From NCBI GenBank assembly GCA_016207365.1, contig JACQPU010000042.1, forward strand, positions 1-26,322: a stretch of DNA of 26,322 bases, given 5' to 3'. Made by a program: the position numbers and the translations under genes. How positions within the stretch are numbered: position 1 is the first letter of the stretch; every line of letters starts with the position of its first letter. This stretch comes from Ignavibacteriales bacterium. GTDB taxonomy: Bacteria; Bacteroidota; Ignavibacteria; UBA10030. Below the pieces are notes generated by a model. The model worked only from the letters and a program-made list of their open reading frames with translations. It did not search any database and was not told the origin of the DNA. Shown here piece after piece: positions 14,591-16,829 of the stretch.

Positions 14591-14740
14591 GCGGATTGTT
14601 TACCCGCCGAAGGCATTTGTGCCGAAGGCGGGCGGATTGTTTACCCGCCGAAGGCATTTGTGCTGAAGGCGGGCGGATTGTTTATCCGTCGAAGGCCTGC
14701 GTGCCCACCATAAATCACGGTGGGTAAACCGGCAGGCAGG
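14591..14740. repeat. Composite palindromic (REP-like) element: about 2.6 tandem copies of a 41-bp unit plus a nested hairpin
   Basis: Unit GCGGATTGTTTACCCGCCGAAGGCATTTGTGCCGAAGGCGG starts at 14591 and 14632, with a partial copy at 14673-14696. It is followed by CCTGCGTGCC...GGCAGGCAGG (14696-14740) enclosing CCCACC-9nt-GGTGGG. Confidence 0.88.
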
Positions 14741-15215: not shown

Positions 15216-15656
15216 TCAGGCCAATTGTTTGATCATGCACACGGCGGTCGAAGGACAGTATAGCCGGTATTCCTTCGATGCTTTGACAAATTCGGGGATT
15301 TGGGTTTTCGGGACAGTAATGAAGCCATGGTTCGCGAAGAATTTCTCGGCCGTTGTCGTTAGCAAGGCCACCTGCTTCACTCCCATCTGTTTCATGGAGG
15401 AGAGAATCGCATTGGAAAGAATGCCTCCCAGGCCTTTGCCGCGGTCGGGAACACGGACCGCAAGCGACCGAAGGAGGGCCTCAGTTCCAGAGATCTCTGC
15501 TCCCACAACACCGACGATAATCCCGTTGTCTATTGCAACAAGAAAACACTGAAGATGCTCGTCGATGTCGGCCGCCGGAAGATCGTTTTCGTCGAGGAGG
15601 AATTTAACGGCCTCCCGGTCGGCAGCAGTAGCGTTGCGGAGATCCCATTGAGTCAT
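15216..15656 (-). CDS. arsN2: GNAT N-acetyltransferase, ArsN2-like (short ArgA/N-acetylglutamate-synthase-related)
   Basis: LLRSLAV, RGKGLG acetyl-CoA motif, LLTTTAEKFF..HGF, C-terminal EY..YCPSTAVCM. ATG 15656 is 1 nt after the arsM stop. Confidence 0.75.
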   Translation of the reverse strand: MTQWDLRNATAADREAVKFLLDENDLPAADIDEHLQCFLVAIDNGIIVGVVGAEISGTEALLRSLAVRVPDRGKGLGGILSNAILSSMKQMGVKQVALLTTTAEKFFANHGFITVPKTQIPEFVKASKEYRLYCPSTAVCMIKQLA

Positions 15657-16471: not shown

Positions 16472-16804
16472 TCAGCAACACTGCTTGTAGTTTGTTTTAA
16501 GATGATCAAAGAATTCCCCAAGGGAATCGGCTACTTCTTCGAGTCGTTTCCAATGAATGCAATAACATGATTTCGGACCTTCGATTTCCCCGGTAATAAG
16601 CCCGAGTGACTTCAATTCTTTTAGATGTTGCGAGACGGTGGCTTGGGCAAGTGGAATGAGATTTACAATCTCACCACAAACGCACTCGCGACGTTTTGAC
16701 AATTCCTTTAAAATGGCAATCCTTGCCGGATGCGCCAGCACTTTGCAGACCTCCGATAAGTCAACATCCTTCCTGCCGAATAAATGCGTTTTGCTTTTTG
16801 GCAT
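16472..16804 (-). CDS. arsR: ArsR/SmtB-family As(III)-responsive repressor
   Basis: LAHPARIAIL, ECVCGEIV, QATVSQHLKELK helix-turn-helix, SCYCI, C-terminal CC. Confidence 0.93.
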   Translation of the reverse strand: MPKSKTHLFGRKDVDLSEVCKVLAHPARIAILKELSKRRECVCGEIVNLIPLAQATVSQHLKELKSLGLITGEIEGPKSCYCIHWKRLEEVADSLGEFFDHLKTNYKQCC

Positions 16805-16809
16805 GGCTT

Positions 16810-16829
16810 TTATCGTAATATTACGATAA
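16810..16829. promoter_or_regulatory. ArsR operator, perfect 20-bp palindrome
   Basis: TTATCGTAATATTACGATAA is its own reverse complement and lies 5 bp upstream of the arsR ATG. Confidence 0.85.

Follow-up and report, generated by a model that had tools for sequence, protein, structure and literature searches.

An ArsN2-type acetyltransferase within the arginine cluster of an Ignavibacteriales bacterium probably serves an arsenic cassette rather than replacing ArgA

Background

Does an acetyltransferase gene lodged in an arginine cluster devoid of argA stand in for the missing enzyme, or does it belong to the arsenic genes that surround it? This question is raised by a 26,322-nt stretch of DNA from an Ignavibacteriales bacterium (GTDB lineage Bacteria; Bacteroidota; Ignavibacteria; UBA10030; assembly GCA_016207365.1, contig JACQPU010000042.1), hereafter the window, in which the genes argC, argJ, argB, argF, argR, argG, arsR, arsM, arsN2, arsC and argH follow one another on the minus strand (Table 1). 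The initial annotation of this DNA proposed that the ArsN2-like acetyltransferase of the cassette could acetylate glutamate in place of ArgA, with the caveat that a bifunctional ArgJ would make ArgA unnecessary.

In the literature, arsN genes are set in ars operons (PMC6465285, PMC6205960, PMC12607644), and PMC6205960 traces their first description to Chauhan et al. 2009. Nadar et al. 2019 (PMC6465285) divided the GNATs of these operons into ArsN1, which is similar to phosphinothricin acetyltransferase (PAT), and ArsN2, which is nearer to N-acetylglutamate synthase (NAGS) and was left uncharacterised. Its function is still called unknown in later papers (PMC6205960, PMC12607644, PMC13163355), in agreement with the initial remark that its substrate is poorly defined. 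On the arginine side, Xu et al. 2006 (PMC1382215) concluded that the bifunctionality of OAT/ArgJ is not predictable from sequence, and described short NAGS genes beside argH in Thermus and Deinococcus, Thermus being ArgJ-positive and NAGS-negative with a short GNAT by argH.

Here, we combined profile searches, structural modelling and gene-neighbourhood comparisons to place this acetyltransferase among its relatives and to weigh its possible roles in the arginine and arsenic pathways.

Results

An ordinary ArsN2 within the GNAT families

The arsN2 frame remains open from its ATG at 15656 and encodes 146 aa. This ATG lies a single nucleotide past the arsM stop codon (15660-15658), with the purine-rich GGGAGAAAAGG immediately 5' of it, and the product carries the tail Y-C-P-S-T-A-V-C-M at residues 133-141; translation therefore confirmed the length, the close linkage to arsM and the tail as they had first been described. 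An alternative frame of 184 aa, beginning at a TTG (15770) and overlapping arsM, was rejected because, in the 146-aa form, the match to the ArsN2 profile sets in at residue 13, and because homologues are 143-147 aa long.

Against NCBIfam, the protein reached 134.6 bits on the ArsN2 equivalog NF040501 (cut-off 125), covering positions 1-133 of the 133 of the profile, a result with which the genome search agreed, and PF13508, PF00583 and PF13673 were over threshold in Pfam. The assignment to the ArsN2 type thus held in the comparison of models that had been suggested, while the link to short ArgA did not: the runner-up families were all NAGS-related and all far under their cut-offs, with 55.2 bits on PRK07757 (NF005840, cut-off 154), 37.9 on the short ArgA of M. 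tuberculosis type (PRK07922, NF005921, cut-off 180), 30.2 on the ArgH(A) fusion model (cut-off 657), and 27.8 and 30 on the classical ArgA models TIGR01890 (cut-off 202.85) and NF003641 (cut-off 344). The NCBIfam models of ArsN1 and phosphinothricin acetyltransferase gave no match at E <= 0.01.

The family signature is present, with LLRS on beta-4, LLTTTA and the (T/S)xEFxxxCP...M tail, and the residues R63, S64, T100, C134, P135 and M141, conserved in 195 family members, are all found in the window's protein; position 117 is a Lys where the family usually has an Arg. The acetyl-CoA motif R72-G-K-G-L-G is intact (GNAT pattern R/Q-x-x-G-x-G/A), and the AlphaFold2 model (pLDDT 92.6) has the GNAT topology. 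Judged on these sequence features, the gene is an ordinary member of the ArsN2 family, predicted to encode an acetyl-CoA-dependent N-acetyltransferase that the intact motif suggests to be competent.

With the single sequence, a search of the PDB returned weak matches alone (E about 1e-3). A profile of 43 homologues, compared with solved structures, retrieved the short NAGS Rv2747 of M. tuberculosis as best match (5yge, E 3e-10) and the NAGS of N. gonorrhoeae as second (2r8v, E 1e-9), and hhalign paired ArsN2 with the acetyltransferase domain of E. coli ArgA at 96.8% probability and 20% identity. The best Foldseek match of the model was likewise the acetyltransferase domain of 2r8v (E 4e-12, TM 0.85), on which VIA-align superposed 143 of the 146 residues (Z 20.1, rmsd 2.0 A), model residues 1-146 corresponding to chain residues 284-435. 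PAT-like structures were ranked much lower than NAGS by the same search, PA4866 standing at rank 28 of the Foldseek matches. Taken together, the profile, hhalign, Foldseek and VIA-align results point to ArsN2 as a NAGS-type GNAT by descent, which accords with the initial statement, and with PMC6465285, that NAGS rather than ArsN1/PAT is the nearer relative of the family. When 25 ArsN2 sequences were placed in a maximum-likelihood tree rooted with the E. coli ArgA domain, the resolution was poor, also as to the grouping of the arg-embedded copies: 12 of the 23 inner branches remained open, and the branch leading to ArgA was very long.

A pump-less cassette lodged between argG and argH

Table 1. 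Coordinates and supporting evidence for the arginine genes, the arsenic cassette and the associated sequence elements of the window
Feature	Coordinates	Strand	Evidence
argC	22709-21693	-	
argJ, ornithine acetyltransferase	21696-20476	-	TIGR00120 490.9 bits, NF003802 517.9 bits, both over cut-off
argB	20479-19586	-	
argF	19589-18642	-	
argR	18645-18175	-	
argG, upstream cassette flank	18116-16875	-	ORF/translation; Pfam Arginosuc_synth on relatives' orthologues
Perfect 20-bp palindrome, core ATCGTAAT/ATTACGAT, candidate ArsR operator	16810-16829	.	Sequence inspection
arsR, ArsR/SmtB repressor with C-V-C motif	16804-16472	-	NF033788 65.8 vs 55; Pfam HTH_5, HTH_20
arsM, As(III) SAM methyltransferase	16458-15658	-	NF008823 321.5 bits vs cut-off 263
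arsN2 (P0001), 146-aa GNAT N-acetyltransferase	15656-15216	-	NF040501 and Pfam GNAT domains
arsC, thioredoxin-type (LMW-PTP fold) arsenate reductase	15204-14773	-	TIGR02691 172.3 vs 174.3; Pfam LMWPc
41-nt tandem repeat, 2.6 copies, arsC-argH spacer	14591-14696	.	TRF score 191
argH, downstream cassette flank	14508-13120	-	ORF/translation; Lyase_1/ASL_C2 on relatives' orthologues

The cassette is compact. The arsM gene probably starts at ATG 16458, the mechanical ORF extending to a TTG at 16521 and ArsM of relatives measuring 265-267 aa, and arsC starts 11 nt past the arsN2 stop. A spacer of 264 nt then separates arsC from argH, whose orthologues in relatives are 62-87% identical. The palindrome ends 5 nt 5' of the arsR ATG and is likely the ArsR operator, in which case the cassette would control itself inside the arg cluster. 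Scans for sigma-70 promoters and intrinsic terminators around the cassette returned nothing above the shuffled expectation, and the argG-arsR spacer folded no better than its shuffles (z -0.3). The 41-nt repeat of the arsC-argH spacer is confined to this site in the genome assembly and forms strong GC-rich hairpins (fold z-score -3.0); located ahead of argH, it may have a part in processing, stability or attenuation.

Elsewhere in the same genome, a fragment of an Acr3 arsenite pump, cut by the contig end, was detected (G000:C271:2834-3478, L063; 266 bits over profile positions 116-327), and no ArsB was found there. The genome thus has an arsenic determinant besides the pump-less cassette.

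The order argG-arsR-arsM-arsN2-arsC-argH recurs in both congeners, with ArsN2 64-66% identical, and three further genera, along with several metagenome contigs, have the same order with an amidase between argG and arsR (ArsN2 46-56% identical). In the remaining ArsN2-positive relatives, an arsR-arsM-arsN2(-arsC) module is located elsewhere, with no arg genes nearby. The argG-argH gap is itself variable in the family, spanning 160 to 2800 bp and containing an amidase, small ORFs or nothing. This variable gap, the occurrence of the module at other sites and the arsR palindrome together suggest that the cassette is a self-contained unit which entered a gap tolerant of insertions and has since been inherited.

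ArgA is absent throughout the lineage, with or without ArsN2

The descent of ArsN2 from the NAGS fold lends some credit to a moonlighting role as short NAGS, in which the enzyme would use acetyl-CoA to acetylate glutamate and prime the cycle of a monofunctional ArgJ, in the manner of the arg(A)-like genes found by argH in Thermus. Its nearest relatives in sequence and fold are NAGS acetyltransferase domains, it has the beta-4 Arg-Ser/Thr in common with the short NAGS of M. tuberculosis, and JGI pipelines call its homologues 'amino-acid N-acetyltransferase'. It is also the only NAGS-like GNAT in the window's genus and is placed between argG and argH, a situation with a precedent in organisms that have ArgJ, lack NAGS and encode a short GNAT near argH (PMC1382215). 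Conversely, its scores on NAGS-type models are low (37.9 vs 180, 55.2 vs 154 and 27.8 vs 203), and the cassette has its own candidate ArsR operator.

The distribution of the arginine enzymes bears directly on this role. As first noted, the operon lacks argA; none was found in the window, and no ArgA was over cut-off in the metagenome-assembled genome (MAG) to which it belongs. Since this MAG is 72.9% complete, the absence is weak proof in itself, and 60 relatives were therefore searched. Classical ArgA was over cut-off in none of the 61 genomes, including two of the same genus at 100% completeness, while ArgJ was present in 48 of them (33 of 36 within the same family) and ArsN2 in 20 (12 of 36). 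A canonical argA elsewhere, together with a best match of the acetyltransferase to an unrelated GNAT family, had been put forward as an outcome contrary to the ArgA proposal; neither was seen, the best match being ArsN2.

We then compared arg loci without the ars cassette in 14 genomes of 90-100% completeness (G003, G004, G005, G008, G010, G011, G012, G022, G023, G027, G028, G031, G035 and G036), 13 of which have no ArsN2, the other (G010) carrying it on a different contig from the arg locus. All 14 loci run argC-argJ-argB-(argF)-argR-argG and continue to argH across a space that contains an ORF of ~600 aa or small unrelated ORFs, or is nearly empty; none of them contains a GNAT gene. The ~600-aa product is an Amidase_3 protein where scanned (L010, L012, L014), and argF is absent between argB and argR in G003, G005, G010, G012, G023, G027 and G035 (L049, L057-L062). 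Genome-wide, the ArgA and short-NAGS models (E <= 1e-5) recovered no NAGS-like GNAT in the 13 ArsN2-less genomes; exceptions to this absence were two weak generic GNAT matches of ~29-30 bits, in G033 and G016, outside the fetched loci. The ArgJ of ArsN2-less relatives is 64-81% identical to that of the window, which the NCBIfam models hitting it name bifunctional.

Because at least 13 relatives share the operon and have neither ArsN2 nor any NAGS-like GNAT, the cycle would be primed there by ArgJ or by an unrecognised enzyme. The occurrence of a NAGS wherever ArgA is missing is thus not a pattern that ArsN2 follows, these relatives having intact operons and no candidate at all. The absence of ArgA is family-wide and is not compensated by ArsN2, and these sister genera weigh heavily against the short-NAGS role. 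From the sequence comparisons, N-acetylglutamate is most likely made in this lineage by ArgJ itself, and the caveat attached to the initial proposal, that ArgJ suffices, becomes the best-supported reading.

Three genomes of one sister family (G044, G052 and G060) encode a true PRK07757 GNAT (207-208 bits) in addition to ArsN2 and ArgJ. The genes examined (L065:3612-4064 and L066:3784-4239, both on the minus strand) keep G-L-M-L-P-R-S, end in C-x-x-C-P-x-x-x-x-C and have no adjacent arg genes.

A rebuilt acceptor pocket and a family-wide Cys tail

In the NAGS of N. gonorrhoeae, three side chains, those of Arg316, Arg425 and Ser427, bind the carboxylates of glutamate (PMC4490483). The segment of Arg316 (G-I-L-V-R-R-S in E. 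coli) falls in a gap of ArsN2, of 4 residues by hhalign and of 7 residues in a MAFFT alignment with two PRK07757 proteins, which retain G-L-M-L-P-R-S at this place; the 195 family members have an invariant Leu26-Pro27 instead. At the other end of the pocket, strand 139-144 of ArsN2 aligns structurally with NAGS strand 428-433, and the end-to-end alignment brings the loop 134-138 (C-P-S-T-A) onto the helix14-beta25 glutamate loop N423-S427, a mapping made at the level of the loop, from aligned ranges and sequence and not by residue-by-residue superposition. Here the NAGS loop with Arg425 and Ser427 is replaced in ArsN2 by Cys-Pro-Ser/Ala-Ser/Thr-Ala, and no conserved Arg occurs at positions 131-138 among the 195 members. 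In these alignments, at loop level for the C-terminal part, ArsN2 has no counterparts of the glutamate ligands Arg316, Arg425 and Ser427. According to the sequence alignments and the model, its acceptor pocket appears rebuilt relative to that of NAGS.

Cys134 is found in 192 of the 195 family members, Pro135 in 184 and Cys140 in 130. The near-invariance of Cys134 makes the Cys tail a hallmark of the family and no peculiarity of the window's protein. A Cys-bearing tail is also partly common to the PRK07757 proteins, which are non-arsenic paralogues: the two from the same order end in C-x-x-C-P-x-x-x-x-C...M, an older motif to whose second and third Cys the Cys134 and Cys140 of ArsN2 seem to correspond.

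Such conserved cysteines could suit a non-catalytic protein that binds As(III) and passes it through Cys134/Cys140 to ArsM, as ArsD does for ArsA, or that senses it, and the tight coupling or fusion of arsN2 to ArsM is in keeping with this. We nevertheless regard a chaperone or sensor of this kind as very improbable, as the acetyl-CoA motif and the whole GNAT core are under strong constraint and many family members occur in genomes without any ArsM.

Arsenic and non-arsenic associations of the ArsN2 family

The ArsN2 family comprises 2854 representative clusters at E <= 1e-10. In the relatives' loci, arsM lies directly upstream of arsN2 in 15 of 20, whether arg genes are nearby or not. In a sample of 301 genomes of the phylum, ArsN2 was over cut-off in 60 genomes and ArsM in 128, and by coordinates 22 of the 71 ArsN2 matches adjoin ArsM. 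The idea of ArsN2 as a specific partner of ArsM is weakened by this modest adjacency and by the many carrier genomes without ArsM.

Among 20 further loci of the phylum, 9 have the order arsN2-arsR-X-arsC, and in the other 11 a tblastn search, for which the Ars proteins of the window and the Acr3 fragment served as queries, detected no ars gene within 5 kb. The arsN2-arsR-(~0.5 kb gene)-arsC arrangement, from which arsM is absent, was observed outside the window's class in L070-L073, L075, L076, L082 and L083. No arg genes were found near arsN2 in any of the 20. This last result again disfavours the short-NAGS role, as do the deletion of the Arg316 segment, the lack of a conserved Arg in the Arg425 loop and the separate family formed by the true PRK07757 genes of the same order. 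We therefore consider it unlikely that ArsN2 stands in for the missing ArgA as first proposed, the absence of ArgA being lineage-wide and independent of ArsN2 and the glutamate ligands not being conserved; a small residual probability is kept for this idea on account of the Thermus precedent and of an ArgJ bifunctionality that is unpredictable in silico.

Fusions give a further view of the family. Among the best 150 representatives, the ArsN2 domain is joined to an ArsM-type methyltransferase (P0048, P0140) or to an LMW-PTP ArsC (P0095), other partners being MarR, DinB/mycothiol-S-transferase-like, C_GCAxxG redox, cupin, response-regulator and second GNAT domains; no fusion to an amino-acid kinase, to ArgH or to other arginine enzymes was seen among them. 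The fusion proteins P0048, P0140, P0095, P0090, P0148, P0063, P0060 and P0193 are metagenomic.

Three distant genes, bona fide members by score (135-155 bits), have no ars context, and one of the three belongs to a purine operon. In this last case (L068:4001-4447, 135 bits), the ArsN2 gene is flanked by a purS-glutamine amidotransferase (purQ-like) stretch on one side and by purL-purF on the other, and ars genes are absent from the surrounding 4 kb. Overall, about one third or more of the members sampled are outside a recognisable ars context, so the substrate of ArsN2 need not contain arsenic.

These observations open the way to another role, in which ArsN2 would acetylate a non-arsenical amine (a low-molecular-weight thiol, a cysteine S-conjugate, another amino acid or a protein) and help under arsenic or thiol stress, arsenic never entering the active site. 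The products of ArsM themselves have no amino group, which fits such a substrate. It is also favoured by the bona fide members without ars neighbours, including the one in the purine operon, and by the share of phylum loci (11 of 20 by tblastn) without an ars gene within 5 kb. The DinB/mycothiol-S-transferase-like, C_GCAxxG redox, cupin and MarR fusions hint at thiol or redox chemistry, and the Cys motif is partly common with the non-arsenic PRK07757. On the other hand, arsM, arsC and arsR are strongly associated with ArsN2 in most of the lineages sampled, direct fusions to ArsM and ArsC exist, and the proposal names no candidate substrate. The association of ArsN2 with arsenic genes is strong, yet neither exclusive nor specific to methylation, and we therefore reserve for a non-arsenical amine a sizeable share of the probability, well short of making it the expected answer.

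Discussion

We consider it probable that the gene encodes an acetyltransferase of the ArsN2 family with a rebuilt NAGS-type pocket, which acts on an amine within a self-regulated, pump-less ars cassette and is not the ArgA of the arginine pathway that surrounds it. In this scenario, arsR would govern arsM, arsN2 and arsC through its own palindromic candidate operator, the whole having lodged in the variable argG-argH gap in one clade of the family and having presumably been inherited vertically since. The enzyme would have kept the ancestral NAGS-type fold while losing the Arg316 segment and acquiring an invariant Cys134-Pro135 on the former Arg425/Ser427 loop.

As for its chemistry, ArsN2 may act on a trivalent arsenical, amino-acid-like or thiol-bound, which Cys134 would hold while its amino group is acetylated, or alternatively on a metabolite needed under arsenic stress; either acetylation would back the detoxification steps of ArsM and ArsC. 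Of the two, the arsenical, with its As(III) ligated by Cys134, is the most plausible substrate we infer, and acetylation of a glutamate-like arsenical, also envisaged in the initial annotation, is possible. More speculatively, the former glutamate pocket could have been turned into a pocket for trivalent arsenicals, with Cys134 ligating As(III) and with ArsM and ArsC contributing to an undescribed N-acetylated arsenic metabolite, a proposal that we advance tentatively and that may well prove wrong. In a weaker variant limited to the arg-embedded clade, residual acetylation of glutamate would provide an arsenic-inducible boost for arginine synthesis.

The locus in itself is of little significance, since it carries a routine ArsN2 whose link to arginine is positional. 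For the biochemistry of the family at large, the analysis yields several handles: a fold of NAGS type, the loss of the Arg316 segment, an invariant Cys-Pro on the former glutamate loop, and fusions that join ArsN2 to ArsM, ArsC and thiol-redox domains. Caution is also called for in the reconstruction of arginine pathways from MAGs, where the pipeline labels 'amino-acid N-acetyltransferase/ArgA' given to the ArsN2 family may mislead.

Compared with known systems, ArsN2 has in common with the NAGS acetyltransferase domain (2r8v; E. coli ArgA) the GNAT core and the C-terminal arm, whereas classical NAGS is a two-domain protein, with an amino-acid kinase and an acetyltransferase, and ArsN2 is a single domain of 146 aa without kinase. 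The short NAGS and arg(A)-like GNATs are closer in architecture: they too are single NAGS-like domains of ~150 aa bearing the beta-4 Arg-Ser/Thr, and their hosts, like the host lineage of ArsN2, are ArgJ-positive without classical ArgA. The motif G-[IL]-[LM]-x-x-R-S nevertheless belongs to short NAGS and PRK07757 and is lacking in ArsN2, which, outside the arg-embedded clade, travels with ars and not with arg genes. ArsN1/PAT, known for arsinothricin resistance, resembles ArsN2 as a GNAT of ars operons that plausibly acts on an alpha-amino group, and was assigned by Nadar et al. 2019 (PMC6465285) to a clade of its own. It is with clade 2, ArsN2 itself (NF040501), that the window's protein agrees in every essential respect, being over the cut-off with the same signature residues and the same ars context; it departs from the usual ArsN2 by its Lys117 and by a cassette that sits inside an arginine cluster without an efflux pump of its own.
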